NCBI GenBank assembly: GCA_903842505.1
Contig: CAIMMI010000283.1
Location: forward strand, 2,568-66,567
DNA length: 64,000 bases
From: an uncultured Verrucomicrobiota bacterium
GTDB lineage: Bacteria; Verrucomicrobiota; Verrucomicrobiia; Limisphaerales; UBA9464
Direction of reading: 5' to 3'
Part shown: positions 16,327-39,941 of the stretch, piece by piece
How the letters are laid out: every line of letters begins with the position of its first letter
How positions within the stretch are numbered: the first letter of the stretch is position 1
Position numbers and translations under genes: made by a program
Notes under the pieces: model-generated
Databases searched by the model: none
What the model saw: the letters and a program-made list of their open reading frames with translations, nothing else
Told to the model about the DNA's origin: nothing

Positions 16327-16441
16327 CAAGCGGGGATGGGGACTTACTGGCTTCTTTCTGTCGAACCTCCAAGCGCCTGTCACCGTACTGTAACCTGGGG
16401 GTCACCTGCCGCGCACCTTGCCGCCCCGTTCGGCGCCTGGC

Positions 16442-17071
16442 CTAACCTTCGGCGATCTCAACGAAGTTGCGGAGCAGGCGAAGCCCGTTGGCCTGACTCT
16501 TCTCGGGATGGAACTGGGTGGCGTAGACGTTGTCGCGCCAGACGGCGGAAGCGAACTTGCGACCGTACTCCGTCCGGGTCGCGATGACGGATTCGTCCGC
16601 GGGTTGGGGGAAGAAGCTGTGGACGAAGTAGAAGTAGGCGCCGTCCGGGATGCCGCGGAAAAGGGGGCAGTCGGGGCGAGCGAGCTCGATCTGGTTCCAG
16701 CCGATCTGGGGGATCTTCAGGTGGGGTTCGGCAGGAGTGGGCTGGAAGCGGACGACGGGTCCTTTGAAGACGCCGAGGCCGAGGGCGCAGGAGTTGAATT
16801 CCTCGCTCCGTTCGAAGAGGGCCTGGTAACCGACGCAGATGCCGAGGAACGGTCGGCCGTCGGCGATCCACTTCTGGATGCCGCCGAGGAGTTCCTGTCG
16901 GCGAAGGGCGTTGACGCAGTCGTCGAAGGCGCCGACGCCCGGTAGGACGATGCCGGAGGCCTTCTCGAGCCCATGGACGGAATCCATGCGCTGGACGTCG
17001 GCACCGACGGCCCGGAGGGCCTTCTCGACGCTGCGGATGTTTCCGGCGCCGTAATCGAGGAGCGCTAGCAC
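16442..17071 (-). CDS. hisH: imidazole glycerol phosphate synthase, glutamine amidotransferase subunit
   Basis: LALLDYGAGNIRSVEKAL, LPGVGAF, GICVGYQ and FHPEKS are class I GATase/HisH motifs. GTG start. Confidence 0.92.
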   Translation of the reverse strand: MLALLDYGAGNIRSVEKALRAVGADVQRMDSVHGLEKASGIVLPGVGAFDDCVNALRRQELLGGIQKWIADGRPFLGICVGYQALFERSEEFNSCALGLGVFKGPVVRFQPTPAEPHLKIPQIGWNQIELARPDCPLFRGIPDGAYFYFVHSFFPQPADESVIATRTEYGRKFASAVWRDNVYATQFHPEKSQANGLRLLRNFVEIAEG

Positions 17072-17117
17072 GGGGAAAGGTTGGGTTGGGCTGGGGCGGG
17101 AATGAAGTCCGGAGTTT

Positions 17118-18302
17118 TCAACCGGGCTGTTCGGAAGGTTGGGCAGCGGGCTGCCCGGAGATCTCGCGTTCGGTCCGGAGCCGGAGCTGGCCGCAGGCGG
17201 CGTCGATGTCGTGCCCCTTTTCGATGCGGAGGGTGGTGACGACGTCGGTGGCCTCGAGGGCGGAGGCGAAGGCGCGGCAGCGTTCCTCGGCGGGGCGGGA
17301 CCATTCGAGGCCCTCGACCTTGTTGTAGGGAATGAGGTTCACCTTGGCGTTGAGGCGCCGGGCGAGCTGGGAGAGCGGCTGGACCTGGTCGCGGGCGTCG
17401 TTGACTCCGTCGATCAGGATGTACTCCAGCGTGATCATGCGGCCCTTGCGTTGGACGTAGTCGTCGCAGGCCGCGGTGAGTTCCGCGAGGGGGTACTTCC
17501 GGTTGATCGGCATGATCCGGTTGCGGACCTCGTCGGTGGCCCCATGGAGGGAGATGGCGAGCTGGAACTGCTCGGGTTCAGCGCCCAGTTGGCGGATGCG
17601 CGGGACGACGCCGGAGGTGGAGATGGTGATCTTGCGGGCGCCGATATGGGCTCCCCACGGGGCGTTGAGGGAACGCAGGGCGGCGAGGAGGTTGTCGTAG
17701 TTGGCGAGGGGTTCGCCCATGCCCATGATGACGAGATTGTTGATCAGGCGCTCGGGTTGGCTGGCGGCCGCGCGTGTGGGAGTCGCGGTTTCAGTGGAGC
17801 CTTCGGCGGTGGGGGCAGGCGTTTCGGCGGCCGGTTGGGACTGGTTCCAACGTTCGATGGCGAGGACCTGTCCGGAGATTTCCCAGGGGGCCAGGTTGCG
17901 CTTCCATCCGTCGAGCCCCGAGGCGCAGAAGCGGCATCCATAGGCGCATCCGACCTGGGTGGACACGCAGAGCGTGTGGCGGTCAGCGCGATCGCCGTAA
18001 AGGGCAGGGTTGGCGGGGATGAGAACGCTTTCGACGTAGGCCCCGTCGTGGAGTTGCCAGAGGAACTTCTGGGTGGTGTCGCGCGATCCCTGCTTGCGGG
18101 CCAGGGTGAGGGAGCCGAGGGAGAACGTGCCGGCCAGCGATTCGCGCAGGGCCTTGGGCAGGTTCGTCATCTCGTCCCAGGAGGCGGCTCGGCGCGGCCA
18201 CAGCCAGTGGAGCAATTGGTCGACCCGGTAGTGGGGAACGTCCCATTCCTTGAATCGGGCGGTCAGCGTCTCGCGGGTCTCTTGTCGGACATCAGGCAAC
18301 AC
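17118..18302 (-). CDS. rlmN: 23S rRNA (adenine2503-C2)-methyltransferase
   Basis: Radical-SAM motif CVSTQVGCAYGCRFCASG, plus MGMGEPLANYD and the C-terminal GHDIDAACGQL. It contains a short Ala/Thr/Pro-rich insert. Confidence 0.92.
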   Translation of the reverse strand: MLPDVRQETRETLTARFKEWDVPHYRVDQLLHWLWPRRAASWDEMTNLPKALRESLAGTFSLGSLTLARKQGSRDTTQKFLWQLHDGAYVESVLIPANPALYGDRADRHTLCVSTQVGCAYGCRFCASGLDGWKRNLAPWEISGQVLAIERWNQSQPAAETPAPTAEGSTETATPTRAAASQPERLINNLVIMGMGEPLANYDNLLAALRSLNAPWGAHIGARKITISTSGVVPRIRQLGAEPEQFQLAISLHGATDEVRNRIMPINRKYPLAELTAACDDYVQRKGRMITLEYILIDGVNDARDQVQPLSQLARRLNAKVNLIPYNKVEGLEWSRPAEERCRAFASALEATDVVTTLRIEKGHDIDAACGQLRLRTEREISGQPAAQPSEQPG

Positions 18303-18355: not shown

Positions 18356-18410
18356 GAAGTTCCCAGTTTCCAGACTCCAGTACCCTGTAGGCTGGGGTGC
18401 CCTCACCCGG
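18356..18410 (+). repeat. diverged copy of the dispersed intergenic repeat (GAAGTTCCCAGTTTCCAGAC...GGGGTGCCCTCAC)
   Basis: gaagttcccagtttccagactccag...ggctggggtgccctcacccgg aligns with 21186-21250 (gaagttcccagtcgccagtttccagaccccag...ggtggggcgagtgtcctcacgagccgg). Confidence 0.6.
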
Positions 18411-18459
18411 CGTTGCTCGTCAACCGCCGCGTGGGGCACGCGGCCTCCAAAAACGGGCC

Positions 18460-18480
18460 TGGCAACTGGCAACTGGCAAC
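18460..18480. repeat. perfect heptamer tandem (TGGCAAC)x3, 7 nt downstream of the rex stop
   Basis: tggcaactggcaactggcaac read directly from the sequence. Confidence 0.9.
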
Positions 18481-18486
18481 TCTCCT

Positions 18487-19125
18487 TCAGTCCTGAATGA
18501 AGTAGGAGAGGTTTTCGAGTTCGATGGCGAGGTTCACGCTGTTGACCATGACGTTCTCGGGGACGTAGGGGACGATGGGAGCAAAGTTGAGGATGCCGAC
18601 GACGCCGTTCTCGACGAGGTCGTTGATGACCTCCTGGCCGCCGACGGCGGGGACGGCGACGATGGCCATGCGGACGTGGTTCTCGCGGACGAATTCGCCG
18701 AGTTGATCCATGCCGAAAAGGGGAACCTTCGGGGCCTTTTCGCGGGCGCGGACGGGATCGAGGTCGAAGGCGGCCACAATTTCGAAGCCCTCCTGCTCGA
18801 ATCCGCGGTACTGGAGAAGCGCGGCGCCGAGGTTGCCGACGCCGACCAGGACGACGGGTTGGAGGCGGCTGGTGCCCAGGAGGTCACCGATCATCCGGGC
18901 GAGTTGGTCGACGTCGTAGCCGAGGCCGCGGGTGCCGAACTGACCGAAGTAGGTGAGATCCTTGCGGAGTTGGGTGGGCTTGACGCCAGCGGCGCGGGCA
19001 AGTGCCTCGCTGCTTACGGTCTGAAGCTGGTTCTGCTTCAGACGTTGGAGACAGCGCAGGTAGATGCTCAGCCGGTAGATCGTCTTCCTCGGGATTTCCG
19101 GGCGGGTCGACTTCTTCAAGCACAC
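18487..19125 (-). CDS. rex: redox-sensing transcriptional repressor Rex
   Basis: IPRKTIYRLSIYLRCL and a winged-helix region (LRKDLTYFGQFGTRGLGY), plus the Rossmann motif VVLVGVGNLGAAL. The 319-aa ORF is trimmed to GTG 19125 or TTG 19119. Confidence 0.85.
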   Translation of the reverse strand: MCLKKSTRPEIPRKTIYRLSIYLRCLQRLKQNQLQTVSSEALARAAGVKPTQLRKDLTYFGQFGTRGLGYDVDQLARMIGDLLGTSRLQPVVLVGVGNLGAALLQYRGFEQEGFEIVAAFDLDPVRAREKAPKVPLFGMDQLGEFVRENHVRMAIVAVPAVGGQEVINDLVENGVVGILNFAPIVPYVPENVMVNSVNLAIELENLSYFIQD

Positions 19126-19177
19126 GCAAGCTAGGGAACGTGGGGCGGGTGGGCAAAGCAGGAAGTGGGGAGCAGGA

Positions 19178-19208
19178 GTCGCCAGTTGCCAGAAGCCAGT
19201 TTCCAGAG
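19178..19208. repeat. GCCAGTT-type heptamer array, in inverted orientation relative to 18460-18480, upstream of rex
   Basis: gtcgccagttgccagaagccagtttccagag. It contains gccagttgccag, the exact reverse complement of ctggcaactggc at 18459-18470. Confidence 0.8.
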
Positions 19209-19294
19209 AGGGGGAACCGGCGCGGACCGGGGGGCTGTGCGAAGGCTTCCGGTGCGTTGACGGTTCCCGGTCGGGGTCCGTAGGTTTGGGGCAG

Positions 19295-20173
19295 ATGAAC
19301 GTATTGCTCGATTCGCTGGTGGAGTTGATCCGACGGACTTCAGCCGAGATTCCGGATGATGTGAACCGGGCCCTGGTGGCGTCGCTGGAGAACGAGAAGA
19401 AAGGGACGATCGCGGAAAGCGCGTTCAAGATCATCGAACGGAACATTGAATTGGCGAAGCGGAAGTCCCAGCCGATCTGTCAGGACACGGGCAGCATCCT
19501 GTTCTACGTCGATTGTCCGGTGGGCTTTGACCAGATCACGTTCACCGAGGTCTGCCGGGAGGCAGTGAAGCTGGCGACGAAGAAGGGCTACCTGCGGCAG
19601 AACTCCGTCGATTCGATCACGGGCGAGAACGACGGCACCAACCTCGGGCCGGGATCGCCAACGATCCACTTTCACCAGCATCGCTCGGAGAAGATCGAGG
19701 TCCGGCTGATGCTGAAGGGTGGCGGGTGCGAGAATGTCGGGGCGCAATACTCGTTGCCGGCGGAGAAGCTGAAGGCGAACCGGGACCTCGATGGATGCCG
19801 GAAGGTGATCCTGGACGCCGTGCTGCAGGCACAGGGCAAGGGGTGCGGTCCCGGAATCCTGGGCGTCTGCATCGGCGGCGATCGCGCCGTGGGATACGAA
19901 TTCTCGAAGCTTCAATTCCTGCGGATGCTGGATGACCGCAACCCGGACGGGCGTCTCGACGCGTTGGAGCAGGACATCCTGAAGACGGCAAACGAGCTCG
20001 GGATCGGGCCGATGGGCTTCGGCGGCAAGACGACGCTGCTGGGCGTGAAGATCGGGGTGGCGAACCGCCTTCCGGCCTCGTTCTTTGTCTCGATCAGCTA
20101 CATGTGCTGGGCCTTCCGGCGGCAGGGTGTGGAGCTGGATTCCAGCCTCGGCATCGCCCATTGGCTCTATTGA
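19295..20173 (+). CDS. class I (Fe-S) fumarate/tartrate hydro-lyase, alpha subunit
   Basis: PICQDTGSILFYVD, MLKGGGCEN and the overall length match the Fe-S hydro-lyase alpha (N-terminal) subunit. Confidence 0.85.
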   Translation: MNVLLDSLVELIRRTSAEIPDDVNRALVASLENEKKGTIAESAFKIIERNIELAKRKSQPICQDTGSILFYVDCPVGFDQITFTEVCREAVKLATKKGYLRQNSVDSITGENDGTNLGPGSPTIHFHQHRSEKIEVRLMLKGGGCENVGAQYSLPAEKLKANRDLDGCRKVILDAVLQAQGKGCGPGILGVCIGGDRAVGYEFSKLQFLRMLDDRNPDGRLDALEQDILKTANELGIGPMGFGGKTTLLGVKIGVANRLPASFFVSISYMCWAFRRQGVELDSSLGIAHWLY

Positions 20174-20236
20174 ACCGAACCGCCCACCAACCGACTCCAA
20201 GCTTCCGATTCCATCCCATCTCATCCCCATCCACGC

Positions 20237-20812
20237 ATGAAGATTCTCCAGGCTCCGTTCACCGAGGAAATGATGCGGTCACTCCGCGTCGGCGACGAGG
20301 TCGCCATCAACGGCATCGTGTTCACCGGCCGTGACGCGGTGCACAAGTACCTCCATGAAGGCGGCGAGTTACCGCCGGGGGTGAACCTCCGCGACGGGAT
20401 CATCTATCACTGCGGTCCGGTGGTGATGCAGGAACCCAACGGCGAGTGGAAGGTGACGGCGGCCGGGCCGACGACTTCCATCCGCGAGGAACCGTATCAG
20501 GGGCAGATCATCCGCGACTTCGGTGTGCGGGGCGTGATCGGCAAGGGTGGCATGGGAGACCGGACGCTCGCAGCCTGTGCGGCGCACGGATGCGTGTACC
20601 TCCATGCGATCGGGGGCGCGGCGCAGGTGTTGGCGGAGTGCGTGAAGAAGGTGCGGAACGTGTACCTGAAGGAGAAGTTCGGGTCGCCGGAAGCGATCTG
20701 GGAGTTGGAGGTGGAGAACTTCCCGGCGGTGGTGACGATGGATTCGCACGGCGGCAGCCTGCATCAGGAAGTGCTGAAGCACAGTCAGGCGGCGTTGGCG
20801 GAGAGGGTTTGA
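20237..20812 (+). CDS. class I (Fe-S) fumarate/tartrate hydro-lyase, beta subunit
   Basis: GDEVAINGIVFTGRDAVHK, IYHCGPV and IGKGGM match the beta (C-terminal domain) subunit. It lies immediately after the alpha subunit. Confidence 0.85.
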   Translation: MKILQAPFTEEMMRSLRVGDEVAINGIVFTGRDAVHKYLHEGGELPPGVNLRDGIIYHCGPVVMQEPNGEWKVTAAGPTTSIREEPYQGQIIRDFGVRGVIGKGGMGDRTLAACAAHGCVYLHAIGGAAQVLAECVKKVRNVYLKEKFGSPEAIWELEVENFPAVVTMDSHGGSLHQEVLKHSQAALAERV

Positions 20813-20831
20813 AGCGGGCGCAGAAGTTCAT

Positions 20832-21004
20832 AGTTTTCAGTTTCAAGTTTCAAGTTGGGCTCGTACTCCTACTCGTACTCGAGCCCATGAAGCCTCTCAG
20901 CAGACGAGAGGCCTTCTCCGGATCGAGTACGAGTACCGCCCTGCGGGCTGAGTACGAGTACGAGTACGAAGCGAAGCCGGCTTGAAACCTGGATCTGAAA
21001 ACTC
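20832..21004. repeat. 173-bp element made of two ~55-nt imperfect inverted arms (heptamer GTTTCAAG units plus hexamer GTACTC/GAGTAC arrays) around a ~63-nt centre; MITE/REP-like
   Basis: Left arm: agttttcagtttcaagtttcaagttgggctcgtactcctactcgtactcgagc. Reverse complement of the right arm: gagttttcagatccaggtttcaagccggcttcgcttcgtactcgtactcgtactcag. The centre holds the hairpin gcctctc-agcagac-gagaggc. Confidence 0.8.
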
Positions 21005-21185
21005 GCGACGTCAGCAACGACCCCCTCTGCGTCCCTGCGCCCCTGCGGGAAAAACCCCCGCCCTCACCGCGTGCCACCTCCCGACGCGGTCCTCCCGCAG
21101 AGACGCTGGGACGCAGGGAAAACCACTCCAGACAAAGCTCCTCCGCGCCTCTGCGGGAAAAATCCCCAACCCACGAGCCGGGCGT

Positions 21186-21292
21186 GAAGTTCCCAGTCGC
21201 CAGTTTCCAGACCCCAGCTCCAAAGGGTGGGGCGAGTGTCCTCACGAGCCGGGTGGGGAGTTCCGAGTTTCAAGATTCAAGTTTCAAGGCCC
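21186..21292 (+). repeat. dispersed intergenic repeat, full composite copy (CCAGTTTCCAG module plus GTGGGGCGAGTGTCCTCACGAGCC core plus GTTTCAAG array)
   Basis: 21227-21290 matches the reverse complement of 28848-28908 at roughly 90% over ~62 nt: gtggggcgagtgtcctcacgagccg..tggggagt.cc..gtttcaagattcaagtttcaag. Confidence 0.85.
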
Positions 21293-21335
21293 CCTGGGCC
21301 CCGCCTCCTGACGTCGACGGCTACGGGGTCGGAGG

Positions 21336-21920
21336 CTACGGGGTCGGAGGCGGGTAGGCGGCGGATTCCCGGATGGCGGCGGCGACGTGCGGAGGGAGCA
21401 GGTGGTCGACGGGGCGGCCTGTCCGGATGCGCTCGCGGATCTCGGACGAAGAGACTGCCAACGGCCAACCGCGGAGCGGGCGGACCCGGAAAGGTTCGGG
21501 TGCCGGCACCGGCGGGTTCCCCGGGCGGGGGATCATGATGAACTCGACCGTCCGGGCGAGCGTATCGGCCTCGCGCCATTGGTTCAGGGTGGGAACGTGG
21601 TCGGCACCGATCAGCCAGCAGAGTTCGGCACCGGGATGACGGGCGGCGAACTCGCGGACGGTGTCGATGGTGTAGCTGGTTCCACCGCGGCGGAGTTCCA
21701 GTTCGTCGACGGCGAAGTCCGGGCGGCCGGCCAGGGCGATGCGAAGCCACCGGAGGCGGAGCGCATCGTGGGCCGGCGCTGTACCCGGCTTGAAGGGGGA
21801 ACGGGCCGCTGGAATGAAGACGATGCGGTCGAGGTTCATCTCCTCGCAGGCGGCCTCGGCCACGAGGAGGTGGCCGAGGTGCACGGGATCGAACGAGCCG
21901 CCGTAGAGACCGATGCGCAT
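21336..21920 (-). CDS. nadD: nicotinate-nucleotide adenylyltransferase
   Basis: MRIGLYGGSFDPVHLGHL carries the (H/T)xGH nucleotidyltransferase motif. The start is at ATG 21920, 7 nt after the cstA stop. Confidence 0.9.
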   Translation of the reverse strand: MRIGLYGGSFDPVHLGHLLVAEAACEEMNLDRIVFIPAARSPFKPGTAPAHDALRLRWLRIALAGRPDFAVDELELRRGGTSYTIDTVREFAARHPGAELCWLIGADHVPTLNQWREADTLARTVEFIMIPRPGNPPVPAPEPFRVRPLRGWPLAVSSSEIRERIRTGRPVDHLLPPHVAAAIRESAAYPPPTP

Positions 21921-21927
21921 GGGAGGT

Positions 21928-24291
21928 TCAGCAGCAACGGTTGATGCCGTCGAACCGCTTCTCGGCGGCGGCGACGTAGGCCTGGGCGCGGGCATCGTCC
22001 GAGACGGCCTCGCGGACTTCGGGCAGATCGATCAGCACGCGTGGACCACAGGCGGGTGCAGCGGTCGACACGGCGGTGGCGGCGGCTTGGTCGATCGCGT
22101 CCTGGTCAGTGAGGTGCCGGGCGAGTCCGACGGCGATGGCGACCGCACCCAGGGCTGAGGCTGGGACGTGGGGATCGAGCGGACGAAGGACCGTTTCGGA
22201 TTCGCGGAGGTCCGGTTTGCGGGAGCCGCGGACCAGTCGGGTCCACTCGTAGAGCGCGACGAGGATCACGATTCCGGCGAGGGACAGGAAGGATCCGGTG
22301 ACGACGAAGTCGATGAGGTTGTTGGAGCGGAGGGCGCGATTGACGGTGACGGCTTTGGCGGCGGCTTTGCCAGCGGGGGAATCGGGAGCACCCGCTTCGG
22401 CGAGTGTCTGTTGGAGGGGCGGGAGCTTGGCGTCGAAGTCCCGGACGGCGGCGAGGAAGCCGATGCGCGGCGTCTCATGGAACATCTTCTGGTAGCCGGC
22501 GGTGAAGGTGACCGTCAGCAGCCAGCACAGGGGAAGCAGCGTGACGAGGGCGAGGGCCGGGGACCGTTTCCGGGCGAGGGCCATCTTGAGGATGAGGGTC
22601 GTCGCGAGGATCAGCGCGATGGAGGCCAGCAGTTGGTTCGCGATGCCGAACAGGGGCCAGAGCGAGTTGATCCCGCCGAGGGGATCGCGCACGCCCTGAA
22701 TCAGGAACCAGCCCCACGCGCTGACGACGAGGACGGACGCGAGGAGGTTGGGGCCGAGGGCGCGGGTGTTGCCGAGGGACGGGTGAACGTGACCGAGGAA
22801 ATCCTGGAGGAGGTAGCGTCCGACCCGGGTGCCGGCGTCGAGGGTGGTCAGGATGAACAGGGCCTCGAACATGACGGCGAAGTGGTACCAAAGCCCGAGC
22901 CCACGCCCTCCGGTGATCTGCTTGAAGATCTGGGCCATCCCGACGGCGAGGGTGGCGGCGCCGCCAGTGCGGCCGTAGAGGGACTTTTCTTCGACCTCGG
23001 TGGCGAGGACTTCCATGACGCCGGGTTCAAGGTGGAATCCGGTGGCATTGACGCGTTGGAGGATGTCGGCGACCTGAGCAGCCTCGGTGGCGCCGGCGCC
23101 CTTGACGTTCATGGCGAGGTAGACGCCGGGTTCGAGCGTGCAGGCCGCGACGAGCGCCATGATGGCGACGAGCGATTCCAGCAGCATCGCACCGTAACCG
23201 ACCGGCCGGGCGAAGCGTTCCCGCGTGATGATCTTGGGGGTGATTCCCGACGAGATCAGCGAGTGGAATCCGCTGATGGCACCGCAGGCGATGGTGATGA
23301 AGCAGAAGGGGAAGAGCTTGCCGCCCACGACGAGTCCCTTGCCGGCGACGGCGAAGTCGACGAGGGCCGGCATCTTGAGTTGGGGCAGCATGGCGACAAC
23401 GCCGGCGGCCAGCGCGCCAATGGTGCCGAGCTTCATGAAGGTGGAGAGGTAATCGCGCGGGGCGAGCAGGAGCCACACGGGGAGGACCGACGCGGCGAGG
23501 CCGTACACGATCAGCGTCCACGCGAGCGGTTCGGCCTTCATCGTGAAGGCCTTCGCCAGATCGTCGTGGGAGTGCACGTATTGACCGCCCCAGACGGCCA
23601 GCAGCAGCAGGATCACGCCACCAATCGAGGCTTCCAGCGTCCGGCCGTGCCGCAGGAACCGGAGGTATCCGCCCATGATCATGGCAATCGGGATCGTGGC
23701 TCCGACGGTAAACACGCCCCACGGACTCTCCGCAAGGACCTGGACGACCACGAGACCCAGCACGGCGAGCAGGATGATCATGATCGCGAGGATGGCCACG
23801 AGGGCGACCGCTCCCGCGAATCCGTTGAGCTCGTCCTTCACCATCTGGCCGAGCGATTTTCCGTTTCGGCGCATCGAACCGAAGAGGATCACGAAATCCT
23901 GCACCGCGCCGCCGAGCACAACGCCGATCAGGATCCAGAGCGTCCCGGGAAGGTATCCGAACTGCGCGGCGAGGACGGGTCCGACCAGCGGCCCGGGTCC
24001 GCTGATGGCGGCGAAGTGATGGCCGAAGACGATCCAGGGGTTCGTCTTCACGAAGTCCTGTCCATCCTCGTGGACTTCGCAGGGCGTGGAGCGGCGGTCG
24101 TCGAGCGCCAGAACCCGTGCGGCAATCCACTTCGAGTAGAAGCGGTATCCGATGGCGTACGTGCAAAGGGCGGCGACGACGACGTATCCCGAGTTGAGGG
24201 TTTCGCCGCGGTTGCGGGCAATCGCGGAGTAGCACCAGGCACCGGTCCCGGCGACGAGCAACCAGATGAGGATGGCCAACGGCTTCGGCAT
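21928..24291 (-). CDS. cstA: carbon starvation protein CstA (peptide/pyruvate transporter family) with a C-terminal tail ending in RCC
   Basis: YRFYSKWIAARVL...NPWIVFGHHFAAISGPGPLVGPVLAAQFGYLPG is the CstA signature. The 787-aa protein has many TM segments and a ~90-aa soluble tail. Confidence 0.9.
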   Translation of the reverse strand: MPKPLAILIWLLVAGTGAWCYSAIARNRGETLNSGYVVVAALCTYAIGYRFYSKWIAARVLALDDRRSTPCEVHEDGQDFVKTNPWIVFGHHFAAISGPGPLVGPVLAAQFGYLPGTLWILIGVVLGGAVQDFVILFGSMRRNGKSLGQMVKDELNGFAGAVALVAILAIMIILLAVLGLVVVQVLAESPWGVFTVGATIPIAMIMGGYLRFLRHGRTLEASIGGVILLLLAVWGGQYVHSHDDLAKAFTMKAEPLAWTLIVYGLAASVLPVWLLLAPRDYLSTFMKLGTIGALAAGVVAMLPQLKMPALVDFAVAGKGLVVGGKLFPFCFITIACGAISGFHSLISSGITPKIITRERFARPVGYGAMLLESLVAIMALVAACTLEPGVYLAMNVKGAGATEAAQVADILQRVNATGFHLEPGVMEVLATEVEEKSLYGRTGGAATLAVGMAQIFKQITGGRGLGLWYHFAVMFEALFILTTLDAGTRVGRYLLQDFLGHVHPSLGNTRALGPNLLASVLVVSAWGWFLIQGVRDPLGGINSLWPLFGIANQLLASIALILATTLILKMALARKRSPALALVTLLPLCWLLTVTFTAGYQKMFHETPRIGFLAAVRDFDAKLPPLQQTLAEAGAPDSPAGKAAAKAVTVNRALRSNNLIDFVVTGSFLSLAGIVILVALYEWTRLVRGSRKPDLRESETVLRPLDPHVPASALGAVAIAVGLARHLTDQDAIDQAAATAVSTAAPACGPRVLIDLPEVREAVSDDARAQAYVAAAEKRFDGINRCC

Positions 24292-24297: not shown

Positions 24298-24337
24298 GTG
24301 AGTGTCACGGAGCCCGTGGTGAGTTTGAAGTTTGAAG
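24298..24337 (+). repeat. diverged copy of the dispersed repeat core, upstream of cstA
   Basis: gtgagtgtcacggagcccgtggtgagtttgaagtttgaag compared with ggcgagtgtcctcacgagccgggtggggagttccgagtttcaagattcaag. Confidence 0.5.
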
Positions 24338-26116: not shown

Positions 26117-26254
26117 GAAGGAAAGGAGGTTTGTTGGCGGGCCAACTTTCAAGAGGCAAGTTTTGGTGAGTGGGAACTGGGGACTCGAAACTCCCCTGCA
26201 GTCCGGGAAATCGCGCTTTCGCCGTGGCCGCCTTCCAATCATGTTCTGCGCCCC

Positions 26255-27145
26255 ATGTCCGATGTCCCGCTATTGTCCCTCGAACTGCCTGGAATCCCGA
26301 AGCTGAAGTCCGGGAAGGTTCGGGAGGTGTTTGATCTGGGTGACCGGTTGTTGTTCGTGGCGACCGACCGCATTTCCGCGTTCGACTGCATCATGCCGAA
26401 TGGGATTCCGCAAAAGGGCGAGGTGCTCACGCAGATTTCGCACTTTTGGTTCGACCGGACGGAGTCCTGGTTGCCGAACCACCGGTTGGCGCGGGCGGGC
26501 GACGCCCTGCCGCCGGAGTTGAAACCGTTCGAGGCCCAGTTGAAGGGCCGGAGCATGATCGTGTGCAAGGCGGCGCCGTTGCCGATCGAATGTGTGGTGC
26601 GCGGCTACCTGGCGGGCTCCGGATGGAAGGAATACCGCAGTCACGGGACCGTGTGCGGAATCCGCCTGCCTGCCGGGTTGAAGGAATCGGATGCCCTGCC
26701 GGAACCGATCTTCACGCCGGCGACGAAGGCGGAGACGGGGCACGACGAGAACATCCCGTTCGAGAAGGCGGCGGAATTGACGGGGGCGGACCTGGCGGCG
26801 CAGGCGCGGGATCTGAGCCTGAAGCTTTATTCGTTCGCGCGGGATTACGCCCGGAGCCGCGGGATCATCATCGCCGATACCAAGTTTGAGTTCGGCGTTT
26901 TCGAGGGGCGATTGGTCCTGATTGACGAGGTGTTGACGCCGGATTCCTCGCGGTTCTGGCCGGCGGACCAGTACGTTCCGGGCCGGAGCCAGCCGAGCTA
27001 CGACAAGCAGTACGTCCGCGACTACCTGGAGACCCTGACGTGGTCGAAGACGCCGCCGGCACCTGCGCTGCCGCCGGAGGTGGTGGCCCGGACGCAGGCC
27101 AAGTATCTGGAGGCCTTCGCCCGTTTGACGGGAAGGCCGCTTTGA
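26255..27145 (+). CDS. purC: phosphoribosylaminoimidazole-succinocarboxamide (SAICAR) synthase
   Basis: SGKVREVFDLGDRLLFVATDRISAFD, IADTKFEFG and LIDEVLTPDSSRFW are PurC motifs. The 563-aa ORF is trimmed to ATG 26255. Confidence 0.93.
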   Translation: MSDVPLLSLELPGIPKLKSGKVREVFDLGDRLLFVATDRISAFDCIMPNGIPQKGEVLTQISHFWFDRTESWLPNHRLARAGDALPPELKPFEAQLKGRSMIVCKAAPLPIECVVRGYLAGSGWKEYRSHGTVCGIRLPAGLKESDALPEPIFTPATKAETGHDENIPFEKAAELTGADLAAQARDLSLKLYSFARDYARSRGIIIADTKFEFGVFEGRLVLIDEVLTPDSSRFWPADQYVPGRSQPSYDKQYVRDYLETLTWSKTPPAPALPPEVVARTQAKYLEAFARLTGRPL

Positions 27146-27419: not shown

Positions 27420-28712
27420 ATGAAACCGATCCCTATTCGGCAAGCCTTCCTGGCCTTGGTGGCCATCGTCGCCAGTTTTGCGTGTCTCGAAGCGGCTCTG
27501 CCCGTCACCGGCAGTCCCGTCGCCGCCTGGAATGAGCAGGCCCTCGACGCGATCCGGGCCACGTCAACGCCTCCCCCAAAGGCTTCGCGCGGCCTGGCCA
27601 TCCTGCATGCATCGATCCACGACGCGTATAACGGTATCGCGCGGGATTATCGCCAGTACCTGGTCACGGAAGGTCGGCCAATCCGGAACTCGTCGAAGGA
27701 TGCCGCGCTGGCGGTCGCAGCCCATGACGTGCTGGTGACGTTGTTCCCTTCGCGTACCGCCCAGTTTGATGCTGAGCAGGCCGCCCAGTTGGCCCCGATT
27801 GCCATCGGCCCCGCGCGGACCCGGGGAATGGCATGGGGACAGGCTGTGGCGGCTGCAATTCTTGCTGCCCGTGCCAACGACGGTTCATCGAGCGTGGTCA
27901 CCTACACCCCGGGAGTCGGGCCCGGCTATTGGCGGCCGACCCCACCTGCCTACGCACCGGCCCTGCTGCCGCAATGGGGCGACCTGGTTCCATTCGGTCC
28001 GAAGCCGATTGCCAGCTTCGTGCCGATGGCTCCGCCGGCCTTGAACACAAGCAAGTACGCCGAGGAGGTGGCTCAGGTAAAGGAACTCGGCTCTGCCAAC
28101 AGCACGGTCCGCACGGCCGACCAAACCCAGATCGCGCGCTTCTGGGCCAACGGTGGGGGTACGGCCACGCCGCCGGGGCACTGGAACCAGATTGCCCGCA
28201 TCGCGATCGCCCAGCAGGGCCTGGATGTGGGGGAAGAGGCTCGATTGATGGCGCTCCTCAACCTCGCCATGGCCGATGCCGCGATCGTTTCGTGGAACAC
28301 CAAGTACGAGTACAATCTCTGGCGTCCGGTGGCCGCCATCCGGGAAGCCGACACCGACGGCAACCCCCTTACGATTGCGGATCCGACCTGGACTCCGCTC
28401 CTCGTGACGCCTCCCTTCCCGGAATACACTTCCGGGCATTCGACGTTCAGTGGGGCTGCTGCGGCTGTTCTGGTCCGGGTGTTTGGGAGGGATTCGATTG
28501 CGTTCGTGGCTGAGTCGGATGATGTGCCAGGCATCGTTCGGAGCTATCCCAGCTTTTCCGCGGCGGCAGTCGAAAGTGGCATGAGCCGGATCTACGGCGG
28601 TATCCACTTCATGAGCGCGAACCGCTTTGGTCTCTCCTCGGGCGGTGCAGTGGGTGACTCGATCGCCAAGCGGCTTCTCAGGAGCCTGGACGATGACGAG
28701 TCGGGCGACTGA
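27420..28712 (+). CDS. vanadium-dependent haloperoxidase / PAP2-superfamily protein, secreted
   Basis: Signal peptide MKPIPIRQAFLALVAIVASFA. The motifs PEYTSGHSTFSGAAA and SRIYGGIHF are acid-phosphatase/haloperoxidase-type histidine motifs. Confidence 0.75.
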   Translation: MKPIPIRQAFLALVAIVASFACLEAALPVTGSPVAAWNEQALDAIRATSTPPPKASRGLAILHASIHDAYNGIARDYRQYLVTEGRPIRNSSKDAALAVAAHDVLVTLFPSRTAQFDAEQAAQLAPIAIGPARTRGMAWGQAVAAAILAARANDGSSSVVTYTPGVGPGYWRPTPPAYAPALLPQWGDLVPFGPKPIASFVPMAPPALNTSKYAEEVAQVKELGSANSTVRTADQTQIARFWANGGGTATPPGHWNQIARIAIAQQGLDVGEEARLMALLNLAMADAAIVSWNTKYEYNLWRPVAAIREADTDGNPLTIADPTWTPLLVTPPFPEYTSGHSTFSGAAAAVLVRVFGRDSIAFVAESDDVPGIVRSYPSFSAAAVESGMSRIYGGIHFMSANRFGLSSGGAVGDSIAKRLLRSLDDDESGD

Positions 28713-28806
28713 TGCCTGTCCGGATCCTCCGTCAAAAACCCGATGGTTACGGAACATCGCCCCGCCGGTCCACCTGGTGGGGCGAGACTTTGTCGAACCG
28801 CCTCAG

Positions 28807-28908
28807 AGTTTGAAGTTTTCAGTTTCAAGTTTGAAGCGGCAGCCGGGCTTGAAACTTGAATCTTGAAACCTGGGACTCCCCAGCGGCTCGTGAGGACACT
28901 CGCCCCAC
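28807..28908 (-). repeat. dispersed intergenic repeat, inverted-orientation copy, with an extra GTTTCAAG/CTTGAAAC hairpin
   Basis: agtttgaagttttcagtttcaagtttgaagc-ggcagccgg-gcttgaaacttgaatcttgaaac forms an imperfect hairpin. It is followed by ctgggactccccagcggctcgtgaggacactcgccccac, the reverse complement of the 21227-21262 core. Confidence 0.85.
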
Positions 28909-29006
28909 ATCCCCAGGCTTGGGGACCGTGGCGGGATGACCCCCTCTGGTCGGAGGTTCCCCGTCCGTTCTCGCCCGCGGTTGCGGTGGGTGGATAGGCT
29001 TGCCTC

Positions 29007-30053
29007 ATGGAGTTGGCATACCGGCAGTTTGACCTGGCGCTCCGCCACCACTGGGCCATCGCAACCGATCTGGGGCGCGGAGGTGGAAAGAGCGTCTATC
29101 CCGTTGTCTTCGTCGAGTTGAAGGACGGGCAGGGGCGCACCGGTCTGGGCGAGGCCTCGCCGTCGAGTCAGTACGGGGAGAACCACGCGACCGTGACCGA
29201 GTTCCTCGCGAGGGTGGACCCGAAGCGACTGAGCTTCGATGACATCGCCGGGAGCATGGCCTACATCGAGGGGTTGGTCCCCGGCCGGTATCCGGCCAAG
29301 TGCGCATTGAACATCGCGCTGCTGGACGGCGCCTCGAAGGCGGCCGGGAAGCCCTTGTGCGAGTTTCTCGGCCTCGGGTCGTTTCGCGAGGGGGCGCACG
29401 TCTCTTCGTTTACCATCGGCATCGATACTCCGGAAGCCATGGCCTTGAAGACCGTCGAAGCCGCCCGGTACCCGATCCTCAAGATGAAGCTCGGCAGCCC
29501 GAAGGATCGGGAGAATTTCGCGGCCGTCCGGAGCGCCGCTCCGGGCAAGTGGATCCGGGTGGATGCGAATGCCGGTTGGAAGACACGCGAAGAGGCCCTG
29601 GAACGGATCGAGTGGCTGGCGTCGGACGGTCGCGTGGAGTTCGTCGAGCAGCCGATGCCGCCGGAGTTGCCGACTGCCGATTGGGCGTGGCTGAAGGCCC
29701 GCTCACCGCTGCCATTGATCGGCGACGAGCTTTATCAGAGTGCCGCGGACGCGACGCGCTGCGCCGAGTGTGTGCATGGAATCAACGTGAAGTTGGTGAA
29801 GACCGGCGGTGTGACCCGGGGCAAGGAGGCGCTCGAAGCCGCCCGGGCACTTGGCCTGAAGACCATGCTCGGCTGCATGATCGAGTCGTCCGTCCTGATC
29901 TCCGCGGGCGCCCATCTGGCGGCCCTGACCGACTACCTCGACCTCGATGGTAACGTCCTGATCACCAACGATCCCTACCGGGGCGTGCTCAACCTTGATG
30001 GGCGGATGAGTTTCGAGGGCGTGGAGGCCCAGTCCGGCTTGCGGGTCCGTTAG
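29007..30053 (+). CDS. dipeptide epimerase (enolase superfamily, L-Ala-D/L-Glu epimerase-like)
   Basis: KMKLG, RVDANAGW, EFVEQP, IGDE, NVKLVKTGG, GCMIESS and DLDG are the enolase-superfamily catalytic pattern of the MLE subgroup. Confidence 0.8.
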   Translation: MELAYRQFDLALRHHWAIATDLGRGGGKSVYPVVFVELKDGQGRTGLGEASPSSQYGENHATVTEFLARVDPKRLSFDDIAGSMAYIEGLVPGRYPAKCALNIALLDGASKAAGKPLCEFLGLGSFREGAHVSSFTIGIDTPEAMALKTVEAARYPILKMKLGSPKDRENFAAVRSAAPGKWIRVDANAGWKTREEALERIEWLASDGRVEFVEQPMPPELPTADWAWLKARSPLPLIGDELYQSAADATRCAECVHGINVKLVKTGGVTRGKEALEAARALGLKTMLGCMIESSVLISAGAHLAALTDYLDLDGNVLITNDPYRGVLNLDGRMSFEGVEAQSGLRVR

Positions 30054-37016: not shown

Positions 37017-39941
37017 ATGACCAACGCGTCCCGTCTCCTCAGCGTTCTCCTCGTGTGCGCATCTGCCCAGGGAGTGATGAGCCAAAGTCCCGGCCAGGTG
37101 GCTGAAGAAGAGGCCATTCGTCGGCAGGAAAAGACCATCGTTCTGCGCGATGCCCTGAATTCCGCCAACCAGCAGCAGAAGCAGGGTGATCTTGGCTCCG
37201 CTGCCAAGACCTATGAACAGGCTTGGGGTCTGGTGGAGCAGCTTGGTTCCTCGGTCGAGGCTGAGCGCACCCAGACTGTCCAGGGGTTCACCTCCGTCTA
37301 CATGGAACTTGTTGTCCGCTCCCTCAAGGACGGCGATTACAAGGAGGCGGATGCCCGTTTGAAGCGCGTCCTGGCCGTGGATCCCACCCACACCCTCGCC
37401 AAGCGCCTGAAGCGTGAGAACGATGAGCGCCTCGAGGAGATGAAGGGGCGGGCGCCGTCGGATAAGGCTCTGGAGTCGGTCGGCGACAAGCGCAAGGAGA
37501 TGATCGAGGCCGGTACCCACGAGCATAACGGCCAGCTTTTCTTCGAACTCGGCAAGCTTGAGGAGGCTGCTGCTGAATTCAAGGAAGCCTTGAAAATCAA
37601 CCCGGACAGCCGGGCAGCTCACCACTACCTCGCGGCCATCGAAGAACGGCAGTATTCCCGTGCGGCAGCCAAGCGCGAGTTGGCTTCCAAGGGACGCCTG
37701 GTTGAAGTGGAGGTCAACTGGGCCACCGAACTGCCCAAGCTTCCCGAGGCCAATCCGTACGCCACCACCAACTCGGTGCGCACGAGCCGCGGTCGGCAGG
37801 TGATCTACAACAAGCTGGATCGGATCCGGCTCAATGAGCTGAAGTTCGAAGGCCTTCCCCTCAGCGAGGTCGTCAAGACTCTTGAGGAGCAGTCCCGGCT
37901 CCGGGACCCGGACAAGAAGGGCATCAATTTCATCATCTCGTCCTCGGTGGACATTCCTCAGGCTCAGGCTGGTGTCGGAGGCATCGATCCGACGACTGGA
38001 CTTCCTGCTCCTGCCGCTCCGGTGGAGCCTCTGGATGTCTCGGCCGTAAACGTGCGCCTCGTTCCCGGACTGAAGGATGTCCGCTTGGCCGACGCTTTGG
38101 ACGCGATCACCAAGGTCGCTGAGAAGCCCATCAAGGTCTCCGTCGAGGACTACGCGGTCATCTTCACGCAACGCCTTCCGCAGGCGGAGCAACTCTTCAC
38201 GCGCCGTTATCGAGTCAATCCCAACACCTTCTATCAAGGCTTGGAGTCCGTCATTGGCTTGCCCCTGCCGATTGACAGCCAAGGCGGTGGTGGCGGCGGC
38301 GCCGGTGGTGGTGGTGGTGGTGGTGGCGCTGGCGGCGGTGCCGGCGGCGGCATGGGCGGTCAGGGTGGCGGCATGTTCACGATTCCCCGCGTCGAGGTCA
38401 CCATGGGTGGCGGCGGCATGGGCGGTGGCATGGGCGGCGGCATGGGCGGCGGCATGGGCGGCGGCATGGGCGGCGGCATGGGCGGCGGCATGGGCGGCGG
38501 CATGGGCGGCGGCGGCATGGGCGGCGGCATGGGTGGTGGTGGCGGCGGTGGAAGCATTGGCTTCGGCCCCGGCATCGGTGGTGTGACCCGGACGCAGTAC
38601 ATGGTCAGCATCCAGGACATCGTCCGGCAGTTCTTCATTGCTTGCGGTGTCAACTTCCCCCTCAGCCCGCTTCAACTCCAACAGGGCGGTGGCCTGGGTG
38701 GTGGTGGACTCGGCGGCGGTCAGGGCCAGTTCGGCGGTGGTCTCGGGGGCCAGGGCCAACTCGGTGGCCAGCAGTCGCAGGACACGAAGGCCATGTTCTT
38801 CAACGACCGAACGGGTATCCTGTTCGTTCGTGCGACCCTCAGCGATCTCGACATCATCGAGCAGGCCATCCAGGTCCTCAATGTCGCGCCGCCCCAGGTG
38901 CAGATCGAAGCCAAGTTCGCCGAAGTCACCCAGCAGGACGGCCGGGCCATCGGCTTCGACTGGTATCTGGGCAACTTCCTGATGAACAACGGGTCGATGG
39001 GTCTTGGTGGTGGCACCGCCCCCAGCGTGAACACGCCGGGTGGAGCGACCGAACCCAGGACCTCCCTGGCCAACAGCGAAGGCACCTTCCCGGGCAATGT
39101 CGCCTCCGGAACTGCCATCCCTGCCGGCGCCAGCGACGGATTGCTGACCTCGGGTGTCCGCAATCAGGACGCCAACCAGTCGGCCATCCCCACGATCGCC
39201 ACCTTCAGCGGCATCCTCACGGATCCTCAGTTCCGCCTCGTCATCCGCGCTCTGGAGCAGCGCGATGGTGTTGATCTGCTCTCCGCTCCGCGCGTTACGA
39301 CCCTCTCGGGCCGGCAGGCGCAGATCTCCGTCGTCGATGCCCGTCGGATCGTGCTCGACGTGAACCAGAACCAGGGCGGCCAGCAGGGCGGCGGGGCCGG
39401 GGTGGTCCAACCGACCGGTGTCGGTCAGGTCATCCAACAGAACCCGATCGGGTTCGGTTACACCACGGCGAGCCTGCCGTTCGGTCCGACGTTGGACGTC
39501 ATTCCTTACGTCTCTGCCGACGACGTCTCCATCCAGATGTCGATCATCCCGGCCTACACCGAGTTCATCGGATATGACAATCCGGGTGACTTTGTGCCCG
39601 TCCAAACGGGCCCGAATGTGGCGCCGGTCCGCGCTCGCTTGCCGTTGCCGCGCATCCGCCTCCGTCAGGTGACGACGTCGGCCATCGTCTGGGACGGCCA
39701 GACCGTGGTTCTCGGTGGCTTGATCGCAGAGGACGTGAAGAAGACCCGTGACAAGGTCCCCGTGCTCGGTGACATCCCGTTCGTGGGTCGTTTGTTCCGG
39801 TCCGAGGCTTCGCTCAACGCCAAGAAGAACCTCGTGATCTTCGTGACGCCGACGATCATCGATCCCGCCGGCAAGCGCATCCATCCGGATGACTCTCTGC
39901 CGTTCGACCCGAACACCGTCCCGACTCAGGCAGCCCACTGA
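37017..39941 (+). CDS. pilQ: secretin (type II/III secretion / PilQ family) with TPR-like N-terminal region and a Gly/Met-rich insert
   Basis: Signal peptide MTNASRLLSVLLVCASAQG. The C-terminal secretin core includes PRVTTLSGRQAQISVV, LDVIPYVSADD, VVLGGLI, VPVLGDIPFVGRLF and NLVIFVTPTII. Confidence 0.88.
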   Translation: MTNASRLLSVLLVCASAQGVMSQSPGQVAEEEAIRRQEKTIVLRDALNSANQQQKQGDLGSAAKTYEQAWGLVEQLGSSVEAERTQTVQGFTSVYMELVVRSLKDGDYKEADARLKRVLAVDPTHTLAKRLKRENDERLEEMKGRAPSDKALESVGDKRKEMIEAGTHEHNGQLFFELGKLEEAAAEFKEALKINPDSRAAHHYLAAIEERQYSRAAAKRELASKGRLVEVEVNWATELPKLPEANPYATTNSVRTSRGRQVIYNKLDRIRLNELKFEGLPLSEVVKTLEEQSRLRDPDKKGINFIISSSVDIPQAQAGVGGIDPTTGLPAPAAPVEPLDVSAVNVRLVPGLKDVRLADALDAITKVAEKPIKVSVEDYAVIFTQRLPQAEQLFTRRYRVNPNTFYQGLESVIGLPLPIDSQGGGGGGAGGGGGGGGAGGGAGGGMGGQGGGMFTIPRVEVTMGGGGMGGGMGGGMGGGMGGGMGGGMGGGMGGGMGGGGMGGGMGGGGGGGSIGFGPGIGGVTRTQYMVSIQDIVRQFFIACGVNFPLSPLQLQQGGGLGGGGLGGGQGQFGGGLGGQGQLGGQQSQDTKAMFFNDRTGILFVRATLSDLDIIEQAIQVLNVAPPQVQIEAKFAEVTQQDGRAIGFDWYLGNFLMNNGSMGLGGGTAPSVNTPGGATEPRTSLANSEGTFPGNVASGTAIPAGASDGLLTSGVRNQDANQSAIPTIATFSGILTDPQFRLVIRALEQRDGVDLLSAPRVTTLSGRQAQISVVDARRIVLDVNQNQGGQQGGGAGVVQPTGVGQVIQQNPIGFGYTTASLPFGPTLDVIPYVSADDVSIQMSIIPAYTEFIGYDNPGDFVPVQTGPNVAPVRARLPLPRIRLRQVTTSAIVWDGQTVVLGGLIAEDVKKTRDKVPVLGDIPFVGRLFRSEASLNAKKNLVIFVTPTIIDPAGKRIHPDDSLPFDPNTVPTQAAH
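38403..38550 (+). repeat. in-frame 12-bp tandem repeat (GGCATGGGCGGC)n encoding 11 consecutive M-G3-4 units inside the secretin gene
   Basis: The DNA reads catgggcggcggcatgggcggcggcatgggcggcgg... The protein reads MGGGGMGGGMGGGMGGGMGGGMGGGMGGGMGGGMGGGGMGGGMGGGGGGG. Confidence 0.95.

Follow-up and report, generated by a model that had tools for sequence, protein, structure and literature searches.

A mosaic family of hairpin repeats and heptamer arrays in a Limisphaerales genome

A composite hairpin at 28776-28909 and its family

The DNA analyzed here, hereafter the window, is a stretch of 64,000 nucleotides (nt) from an uncultured bacterium of the Limisphaerales (Verrucomicrobiota), and its spacers contain a family of mosaic repeats, with a complete composite hairpin at positions 28776-28909, between the genes for a PAP2/VCPO protein and an MR_MLE enzyme. 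Repeats were detected with Tandem Repeats Finder (TRF) and pattern matching, significance was assessed against shuffled sequence, and the gene map was drawn from Pfam and the gene calls of a near-identical contig. Other contigs and loci compared with the window carry L-numbers (L001, L044, L085, etc.), and genes on these loci were called with our own codon log-odds method. The RlmN of the window and a protein of the closed 7.9-Mb metagenome-assembled genome (MAG) OZ260084.1, also from Limisphaerales, fell into one cluster at ≥90% identity; the orthologous genes of this MAG were ~92% nucleotide-identical to those of the window, and it represents a sister species. The composite hairpin has the following parts:

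28776-28909, minus strand: complete composite GTGG hairpin, ~134 nt, size class 2 by the architecture and length of that class
28884-28909, minus strand: 26-nt left arm, GGTGGGGCGAGTGTCCTCACGAGCCG, which is the family's conserved core; this copy starts TGT and has 1 mismatch to the consensus
28776-28800, minus strand: right (partner) arm of the RB type, plus strand GGTGGGGCGAGACTTTGTCGAACCG, 3 mismatches to CGGCTCGACGGAGTCTCGCCCCACC
28807-28877, no strand assigned: inner hairpin (TRF period 7, pattern matches)
28807-28836, no strand assigned: heptamer array AGTTTGA AGTTTTC AGTTTCA AGTTTGA AG, part of the inner hairpin
28837-28847, no strand assigned: loop of the inner hairpin, placed by coordinates
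28848-28877, no strand assigned: inverted array CTTGAAA CTTGAAT CTTGAAA CCTGGGA CT, part of the inner hairpin

Read on the minus strand, the element runs from the left arm through the sense heptamer array, the loop and the inverted heptamer array to the right arm, which is predicted to base-pair with the left arm. The same architecture, with lengths of 133-138 nt, was found at L044, L013, L054, L011, L057, and L014. The window contains two left arms and one right arm, the other left arm belonging to an incomplete copy:

21226-21288, plus strand: half element, an exact left arm (21226-21251, 0 mismatches) followed by a sense heptamer array (21259-21288)

The inverted array is absent from this half element, and no right arm was found within 380 nt of it. 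The similarity between these two sites had been noticed in the original prediction, which described a dispersed repeat with a conserved core of about 62 nt, bounded at 28807-28908 in the second copy, and estimated by eye that the pair was about 90% identical. The estimate was borne out, as the global alignment of 21227-21288(+) and 28848-28908(-) showed 57 of 62 shared positions to be identical (92%), with one 1-nt gap. The unit and its bounds had to be redrawn: the 62 nt are half of the ~134-nt composite hairpin, the conserved part is the 26-nt arm, and the true element at the locus is 28776-28909. The match between 21227-21251(+) and 28884-28908(-) is perfect (25 of 25 nt), with 86% complementarity over the adjoining 43 nt. 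With up to 3 mismatches permitted, the 24-mer core still occurred just two times in the window, and 0 occurrences were expected (100 shuffles). A duplicated gene fragment was considered as the source of this similarity and rejected. A CRISPR array was also rejected, the copies being dispersed, in both orientations, and mostly single or in inverted pairs.

When public genomes were scanned with a 20-mer of the core, using one genome per species, many additional copies were found, at least 68 of them in at least 60 stretches from at least 17 MAGs. At least 43 of the stretches listed came from OZ260084.1, with at least 47 exact-core copies, and 46 of the 47 cores listed for that genome lay outside called genes. 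The other stretches listed belonged to further Verrucomicrobiota, Kiritimatiellia, and Lentisphaerota, and to two MAGs labelled Acidobacteriota and Hydrogenedentota; these matches outside the Planctomycetes-Verrucomicrobia-Chlamydiae (PVC) group ('Sulfotelmatobacter' MAG, Hydrogenedens MAG) depend on MAG binning. The GTGG core was absent from viral contigs, and plasmids gave chance-level matches only.

Conservation of the arm was 82-100% across its 26 nt and fell to background level immediately outside. The arm starts G-GTGG-GGCGAG, with the head conserved at T88/G100, and carries a tetranucleotide head of the GTAG type. Among the matches listed, 34 of 68 left arms had an inverted right arm no more than 380 nt away, and the other half were solitary. 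The right arm takes the form CGGCTCG-CGGGGACG-CTCGCCCCACC or CGGCTCG-ACGGAGT-CTCGCCCCACC. Element lengths were discrete, the insert that distinguishes the size classes lying always between ...CGAGCCG and CGGCTCG...:

50 nt: no apical insert, the arms abut
60-78 nt: the apical insert is a short loop
~134 nt: the apical insert is a hairpin of inverted heptamer arrays
~166-172 nt: the apical insert is a hairpin of inverted NATCGG hexamer arrays

No target-site duplication was found in the flanks of complete 50-78-nt copies (L005, L015, L017, L018, L021, L028, L041, and L053).

The 28776-28909 element was predicted to fold at -74 kcal/mol (z about -4 on either strand). Complete elements reached z values of -4 to -8.8 against shuffles, the 50-nt doublet giving -46 kcal/mol (z -8.8), and the half element 21226-21288 folded no better than shuffled sequence (z -0.06). 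The check for a conserved RNA structure suggested with the original prediction was negative: among ten composite copies, 0 of 35 predicted pairs showed a compensatory change, and the substitutions either broke pairs or created G.U. This is the pattern of young, decaying duplicates. The left arm was almost invariant, and the right arm occurred in two versions that alter the internal loop, with no response in the left arm. The lack of compensatory changes, together with a left arm that stays invariant while the right arm varies, points to an arm recognized as sequence and to copies of recent common descent, rather than to a structure kept by selection. Rfam gave no match at the elements of the window, at 18 diverse loci, or in a permissive scan of the bare hairpin. 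Two unrelated matches to Acido-Lenti-1 (RF01687) were seen in L018, from a Verrucomicrobiota MAG, at 1190-1234(-) and 1338-1383(+), several kb from the GTGG hairpin; they are inverted and ~100 nt apart, an arrangement that looks like a repeat doublet. Terminator-like sites numbered 5 against 7.4 expected, with none at the elements and no T-run after the hairpins, and the promoter scan gave neither enrichment nor sigma-70-like matches.

All copies had been described as intergenic, and this held within the window. It did not hold for the family, since hairpin copies occur within genes, in frame, in relatives. Bare or short-loop hairpins were found in four MAGs with low copy numbers, inside the genes for acetyl-CoA synthetase, NadE (NAD synthetase), MutS, and QueA, where the reading frame runs through and Pfam domains continue on both sides; such intragenic copies were found in relatives only. 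The 51-nt form encodes GGASVLTSRLAGTLAPP; owing to the quasi-palindromic nature of the element, a nearly identical peptide, GGASVPASRLVRTLAPP, results from the opposite orientation. Similar inserts are known from Opitutus terrae, where dimers of GTAG-headed repetitive extragenic palindromic (REP) sequences, with partners 1-2 bp apart, add 15-25 codons in-frame, frequently in DNA-repair genes; the REP head can also be GTGG, a variant in a PVC REP family (PMC3733652). The QueA gene in L052 (2091-3239) is interrupted from about residue 98 by the GTGG-arm hairpin, and the O. terrae QueA (Oter_2037) is interrupted at residues 101-124 (PMC3733652). Since two repeat families hit nearly the same residue in two lineages, the site may be a permissive surface loop or a target that is preferred. 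Identity with the published O. terrae families was rejected on a comparison of the REP-encoded peptides, which differ, so that the GTGG repeats form a different family of the same kind.

Further repeat sites and their turnover between strains

The genes around the repeats discussed here are the following:

17118-18302, minus strand: RlmN
18487-19125, minus strand: Rex
19286-20812, plus strand: fumarase subunits, including FumB
21336-21920, minus strand: cytidylyltransferase
21928-24291, minus strand: CstA
26255-27145, plus strand: SAICAR synthase
27420-28712, plus strand: PAP2/VCPO protein
29007-30053, plus strand: MR_MLE enzyme

A search for three tandem AGTTNNN units with up to 3 mismatches gave 25 matches in the window against 0.84 expected, all at sites already named in the original prediction as diverged or partial copies. 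These sites are real repeats, and what they share is heptamer (AGTTTCA, AGTTTCC, AGTTGCC, and the like) and hexamer (GAGTAC) modules, not the 62-nt core. GAGTAC arrays were found at 12680-12706 and 20860-20970 by pattern search and TRF. The sites are:

10057-10075, plus strand: two heptamer units right after a stop codon, weak and doubtful (63% match in family D2), missed by the three-unit pattern
12679-12756, no strand assigned: GAGTAC array (12679-12706) and, just upstream of the ATG at 12758, a heptamer array of the inverted type (12720-12756)
18358-18481, no strand assigned: heptamer-flanked REP doublet in the Rex-RlmN spacer (TRF, pattern matches)
19177-19206, plus strand: unpaired heptamer array AGTCGCC AGTTGCC AGAAGCC AGTTTCC AG in the divergent Rex/fumarase spacer
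20825-21003, no strand assigned: nested hairpin of ~180 nt, fold -95.3 kcal/mol (z -8.06), built of arrays
21172-21217, plus strand: 5'-truncated left arm CACGAGCCG with a CCAG-flavour array (AGTTCCC AGTCGCC AGTTTCC AGACCCC AG), a direct repeat (D6) of 21243-21281 with heptamer matches
24315-24337, plus strand: short array of heptamers, AGTTTGA AGTTTGA AG, lying 24 nt upstream of the start of CstA, which is encoded on the opposite strand
26150-26196, no strand assigned: small heptamer hairpin upstream of SAICAR synthase (pattern match 26170-26192)
56156-56312, plus strand: two 62-nt direct repeats, 98% identical (D8), each an inverted doublet GCCTCGTGACCTCG...CGACGTGAGGAGGC, with a weak heptamer array in the spacer between them (56215-56237)

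Modules are nested in more than one order. At 18358-18481 the heptamer arrays lie outside and a doublet of GTAG-headed REP palindromes lies inside: the left part consists of an array (18358-18380) and a GTAG-headed REP (~18387-18411, GTAGGCTGGGGTGCCCTCACCCGGCG), and the right part of an inverted, decayed REP (~18426-18448) and the inverted array (CTGGCAA)x3 at 18459-18481. The GTAG module starts GTAGGCCGGGTG and is the palindrome GCCGGGTG-CCCT-CACCCGGC. The nested hairpin at 20825-21003 has an outer layer of heptamer arrays (20825-20861 and 20981-21003), a middle of GAGTAC/CTCGTA hexamer arrays (20860-20886 and 20925-20970), and a small hairpin at its centre (~20890-20915). Positions 26170-26192 fall in the first codons of a 216-amino-acid open reading frame (ORF) call, and the shorter ORF of other strains excludes the array.

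Strains were compared through contigs from other metagenomes that encode identical Rex, FumB, or SAICAR synthase proteins. The window's FumB-cytidylyltransferase spacer measures 523 nt, whereas its counterparts next to an identical FumB span 82-186 nt: the spacer is 82 or 90 nt long in five other contigs, with just 5 or 4 heptamers, and 186 nt in one contig, with three GTAG REPs in alternating orientation. The 20825-21003 hairpin belongs to a mosaic of ~440 nt that is missing from other strains. L075 shows three REPs in alternating orientation, and the window has a doublet at 18387-18448. L001 is 99.9% identical to the window over 22 kb, yet its Rex-RlmN spacer holds a different element of the same architecture, in which CAAG-flavour heptamers enclose another inverted doublet; the 56156-56312 module is the centre of this alternative Rex-RlmN allele in L001/L069. 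At the same spacer, other strains have four GTTGCCA units instead of three, and further strains have lost 25 nt of the REP right after GTAG, plus 10 nt of the partner REP. The architecture of 18358-18481 was retained in the sister species. The left array at 26150-26196 is CAAG-flavour in the window and CCAG-flavour in other strains, with the same C-to-A in all three units. Since the hexamer array at 12679-12706 (CGTACT) is a single unit in the sister species, it was expanded in the window. Other sites were stable: the array at 24315-24337 was unchanged in 6 of 6 other strain contigs compared, and the 28.8k composite was present in 5 of 5 sampled, with scattered non-compensatory single-nucleotide polymorphisms. 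Presence/absence and copy-number polymorphism between close strains, as known for REPs, was therefore found among these repeats.

Smaller differences were also recorded near the repeats. A 10-nt indel, AGGGTGGGCT, segregates among strains (L062/L066-L069) at window position 19216, beside the heptamer array, and a separate deletion of ~28 nt also segregates in the divergent Rex/fumarase spacer. L064 has a scaffold N-run (3151-3250) exactly at the Rex-RlmN element, and the contig end of L167 (window ~28827) lies inside the 28.8k hairpin. At 21319-21351, the C-terminal end of the cytidylyltransferase gene, strains differ in carrying 2 or 3 copies of the 15-nt tandem repeat GGCTACGGGGTCGGA. The adjoining GCCTCCTGACGTCGACGGCTACG resembles the 56156-56312 module, and for this reason the 3' end of the gene may, judging from its sequence, be built from repeat DNA. 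A tract rich in Gly and Met codons at 38283-38548, made up of about 10 units of (GGC GGC GGC ATG)n together with runs of GGT/GGC, is low-complexity coding DNA inside a 974-amino-acid ORF (37017-39941, plus strand).

Heptamer arrays were next surveyed in the sister genome, where 70 were counted per 344 kb and 0 in shuffles. Coding sequence makes up 83% of this DNA, yet just 2 of the 70 arrays lay within genes (p ~1e-49). Paired arrays were always arranged as 5'-(AGTTNNN)n...(NNNAACT)n-3' (18:0), and unpaired arrays within 150 nt upstream of starts were found in both orientations, 8 forward and 6 reverse.

Origin of the repeats and competing explanations

The modules described above are repeated above chance, intergenic, and variable in order; they form inverted doublets and alternating clusters, carry GTAG or GTGG heads, and are polymorphic between strains. 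The proposal of a dispersed, mosaic family in both orientations, resembling REPs and bacterial interspersed mosaic elements (BIMEs) and assignable to no named family, thus stands. Our preferred reading, to which we give a probability of roughly 0.6, is that these are non-autonomous, selfish palindromic repeats similar to REPs, REP doublets forming hairpins (REPINs), and BIMEs, combined with arrays similar to short tandemly repeated repetitive (STRR) sequences, in a Limisphaerales genome. The claim that they work like REP/BIME is supported; the REP-associated tyrosine transposase (RAYT) searched for was not found beside the GTGG arm, and for lack of this cognate gene we speak of REP/BIME-like repeats and not of formal REP membership.

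The basic unit would be an inverted doublet of two GTGG-headed arms of 25-26 nt, forming a 50-nt hairpin. Larger forms would arise as hairpin modules enter hairpins already in place, at the apical loop, so that the elements become nested like Russian dolls; the inserted modules would be inverted AGTTNNN array pairs, NATCGG or GAGTAC hexamer arrays, and GTAG-headed REPs. Insertion of the GTGG module itself is suggested by the size classes and the intragenic copies. The ~134-nt composite (28776-28909) would then spread as a unit, while arrays would grow, shrink, and homogenize by replication slippage. Copies would be gained and lost as DNA, probably by way of single-stranded hairpins on which an enzyme of the Y1/HUH type acts in trans, a route proposed by analogy with REPs (PMC3733652) and with the IS200/IS605 mechanism (PMC6006769). 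Effects at the RNA level, such as 3' hairpins that stabilize or end transcripts, would be secondary.

The phylum has the machinery and the habit for such a process, since RAYT loci with GTAGGG REPs and a Y1 protein in the sister genome were found. Verrucomicrobial RAYT genes (relatives of Oter_2468) are flanked by REPs composed of GTAGGG and a palindrome, and one locus has a GTAG REP of the window type. Around a RAYT gene flanked by GTAG REPs in L080 (Opitutaceae, Rariglobus-like), GTCCTCN heptamer arrays were observed, direct and inverted, and TCAGGTT and GCAGAG-type arrays also occur in this genome (7601-7699, 10637-10700, 11722-12023, and 12649-12722 together); because this locus has arrays of its own, heptamer arrays may be a general verrucomicrobial feature. 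A third repeat family was also seen, with multi-hairpin units of ~245 nt in tandem on both sides of the IS200/IS605-type TnpA gene of the sister genome, at L085 16325-16816 (units at 13717-13930 and 15890-17710; further copies in L009 and L020). A 110-nt partial copy of this unit (85% identity) lies in the window at 12567-12676, adjoining the GAGTAC/heptamer arrays.

Several observations weigh against a REP-like origin. No RAYT or TIRYT gene was found by tblastn and profile hidden Markov model (HMM) in the window and 61 core-bearing loci (544 kb), the RAYT profile being one that would miss an IS200-type TnpA, and tblastn with the Limisphaerales TnpA gave no match in the window. The GTGG arm was absent from 80 metagenomic RAYT loci (229 kb) and from L078-L084, and in the sister genome a single Y1 gene was seen, which lies 5 kb from the ortholog of RlmN and encodes a TnpA of the IS200/IS605 type. 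A classical REP unit itself folds as a palindrome; the isolated GTGG arm, at -9.3 kcal/mol (z -0.73), is not such a palindrome. REP families are usually lineage-specific, and an arm conserved exactly, at 20 of 20 positions, across PVC classes is unusual among them. No empty-site allele for the GTGG element was found among the sampled strains. Moreover, three further observations count at the same time in favour of a function in RNA: the heptamer array at 12720-12756 is identical at 37 of 37 positions to that of the ~92%-identical sister species, unpaired arrays after stop codons in that species favour the AGUUNNN reading 17:5, and its core is co-oriented with genes in 18 of 24 tandem contexts (p = 0.023).

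These last findings belong to the main rival, according to which the hairpins are cis-acting RNA elements selected in place, as 3'-UTR stabilizers or U-tract-independent terminators between genes, with an RNA-binding protein on the arm or the AGUUNNN arrays. In agreement with it, G.U pairs make the sense-strand form of the bare hairpin 4-7 kcal/mol more stable, and arrays begin 3-13 nt past the FumB and Rex stops in all alleles. However, the covariation and Rfam results given above, the lack of T-tails and of terminator enrichment, and a right arm that varies without compensation opposite an invariant left arm speak against it. Strains whose flanking proteins are identical also differ in that whole elements are exchanged, shortened, or missing, and copies occur in divergent promoter regions and, in either orientation, inside ORFs. 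We therefore regard selection in place as an unlikely main explanation. The core also lies on the C-rich (lagging-strand) sequence in 32 of the 47 copies listed for OZ260084.1 (p = 0.019; replichores by GC skew), whose genes show no strand bias, and this fits a single-strand mechanism such as that of IS200/IS605 (PMC6006769). The orientation statistics are only suggestive, because they depend on our own gene calls, have p values of ~0.02 each, and come from several tests; the biases are modest and fit, without proving, a strand-specific DNA process with some filtering by transcription.

It is about as unlikely that the GTGG arm is the recognition site of a conserved enzyme outside the known RAYT clade, one that inserts hairpins specifically into apical loops and, by the same single-strand mechanism, leaves the tandem 6- and 7-mer arrays of fixed polarity as by-products. 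This idea rests on the invariance of the arm across several PVC classes while the partner arm drifts. If it were true, the hairpins would be a distinct class of mobile hairpin DNA that colonizes both spacers and ORFs, and not one more REP family.

A quite improbable explanation takes the heptamer arrays as tandem regulator-binding sites, like the TAACTGA repeats or heptad operators, and the GTGG hairpin as something separate. A CAGTT/AACTG-type core is indeed common to the arrays and TAACTGA (TCAGTTA in reverse complement), and the arrays vary in 7-nt steps (PMC4679880); three unpaired arrays of the window lie 2-80 nt upstream of starts, where the mRNA reads CTKGNAA, and the polarity of paired arrays is strict. 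Nevertheless, the unpaired arrays upstream of starts in the sister genome have no orientation preference, and the forward orientation expected of TAACTGA-type repeats at such positions was not seen. The units are degenerate and switch flavour between strains, sigma-70-like promoter matches are lacking, and arrays are gained, lost, or replaced at one site while the flanking proteins stay unchanged.

A deletion derivative of a DDE insertion sequence, that is, a classical miniature inverted-repeat transposable element (MITE) with the 26-nt arms as its terminal inverted repeats, has still less to recommend it and is very unlikely, because no target duplications were found at complete copies. Imperfect inverted arms of 25-26 nt, sharp outer bounds, and a variable interior would suit such an element, and the patchy occurrence across PVC and two non-PVC MAGs could be horizontal spread; half of the arms are solitary, however, no transposase ORF lies between or beside arms in the 61 loci, the core is missing from viral contigs and plasmids, and a GT[A/G]G head is typical of REPs (PMC3733652). 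Finally, chance, low complexity, or assembly artefact can be set aside as having negligible probability: the repeats do disturb assemblies, as at the N-run and the contig end mentioned above, but the core and the arrays far exceed their expected 0 and 0.84 occurrences, and the same sequences recur in assemblies made independently (ENA, JGI, Logan, and NCBI), among them a closed chromosome.

If the repeats are selfish REP-like DNA, such hairpins would be a major and fast-changing component of intergenic DNA in uncultured Limisphaerales such as this soil/freshwater bacterium. The family would unite what is usually treated separately: REP doublets with GTAG or GTGG heads, heptamer arrays of the STRR kind, and palindromic inserts that keep the reading frame. 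In practical terms, the repeats break short-read assemblies, inflate ORF calls, and offer hypervariable strain-typing markers for metagenomes, and the invariant arm and the strict array polarity are handles for finding the mobilizing enzyme and might also help to explain the purpose of heptamer arrays.

Relation to known repeat systems

The closest comparison is with REPs, REPINs, and BIMEs, in particular with the GTAG-tagged REP superfamily, which includes the GTAG-17/18/19 dimers of O. terrae (Di Nocera et al. 2013, PMC3733652), and with the REPINs of Bertels & Rainey 2011 (PMC3116915). Like these, the window's family consists of 25-26-nt units with a GT[A/G]G head and forms heterodimers of two sub-types, inverted doublets, and alternating clusters; copy number is high, location mostly intergenic, target-site duplication absent, and presence polymorphic between strains. 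The window also holds bona fide GTAG-headed palindromes (18387-18411). As in O. terrae, dimers lie 0-2 bp apart and form in-frame inserts of 15-26 codons in housekeeping and DNA-repair genes, with QueA hit near residue 100. Unlike REPs, the GTGG arm is not a palindrome alone, and no RAYT flanked by it was found; the encoded peptides GGASVLTSRLAGTLAPP differ from those of the O. terrae families listed, and several PVC classes share 20-26 identical nt of the arm, in contrast to REPs, which are usually lineage-specific. The tandem 7-mer and 6-mer modules, which had been grouped with BIME mosaics, are better described as an STRR-like component, since the apical loops hold array hairpins that classical BIMEs lack.

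Cyanobacterial STRR heptamers form hairpins (PMC2670836), and TAACTGA repeats are known from Beggiatoaceae, Cyanobacteria, and Bacteroidetes (PMC4679880). The arrays of the window resemble both in their intergenic 7-nt tandem units, in hairpins made of inverted arrays, in 7-nt steps between close strains, and in a related CAGT(T)/AACTG core. They differ in phylum and in unit sequence, their units being degenerate (AGTT plus 3 variable bases), and unlike those repeats most of them form pairs of strict polarity that are embedded in REP-like arms or surround them. The intragenic copies recall the Rickettsia palindromic elements (RPEs), which, as far as they are covered in PMC3733652, are in-frame palindromic inserts that add a peptide and leave the ORF intact; the same account confines RPEs to Rickettsia and describes them as AT-rich and either CGTC-tagged or longer, whereas intragenic copies of the present family were seen only in relatives of the window's genome.

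MITEs such as Correia/NEMIS and ERIC are small non-coding elements with inverted ends that form hairpins between genes, and they come with target-site duplications and a related DDE insertion sequence. The present elements share the small non-coding form, the inverted ends, and the intergenic hairpins with MITEs, but neither target-site duplications nor a related DDE insertion sequence were found in the loci examined.

Verrucomicrobial REPs, cyanobacterial heptamer STRR hairpins (PMC2670836), and in-frame palindromic inserts were known already. Our literature search found no description of the GTGG-arm family or of repeats in Limisphaerales. Collectively, what is new here is a GTGG-arm family whose arm is conserved across PVC classes, the nesting of REP-like arms with tandem 6-/7-mer array hairpins, and their hypervariability within one species.

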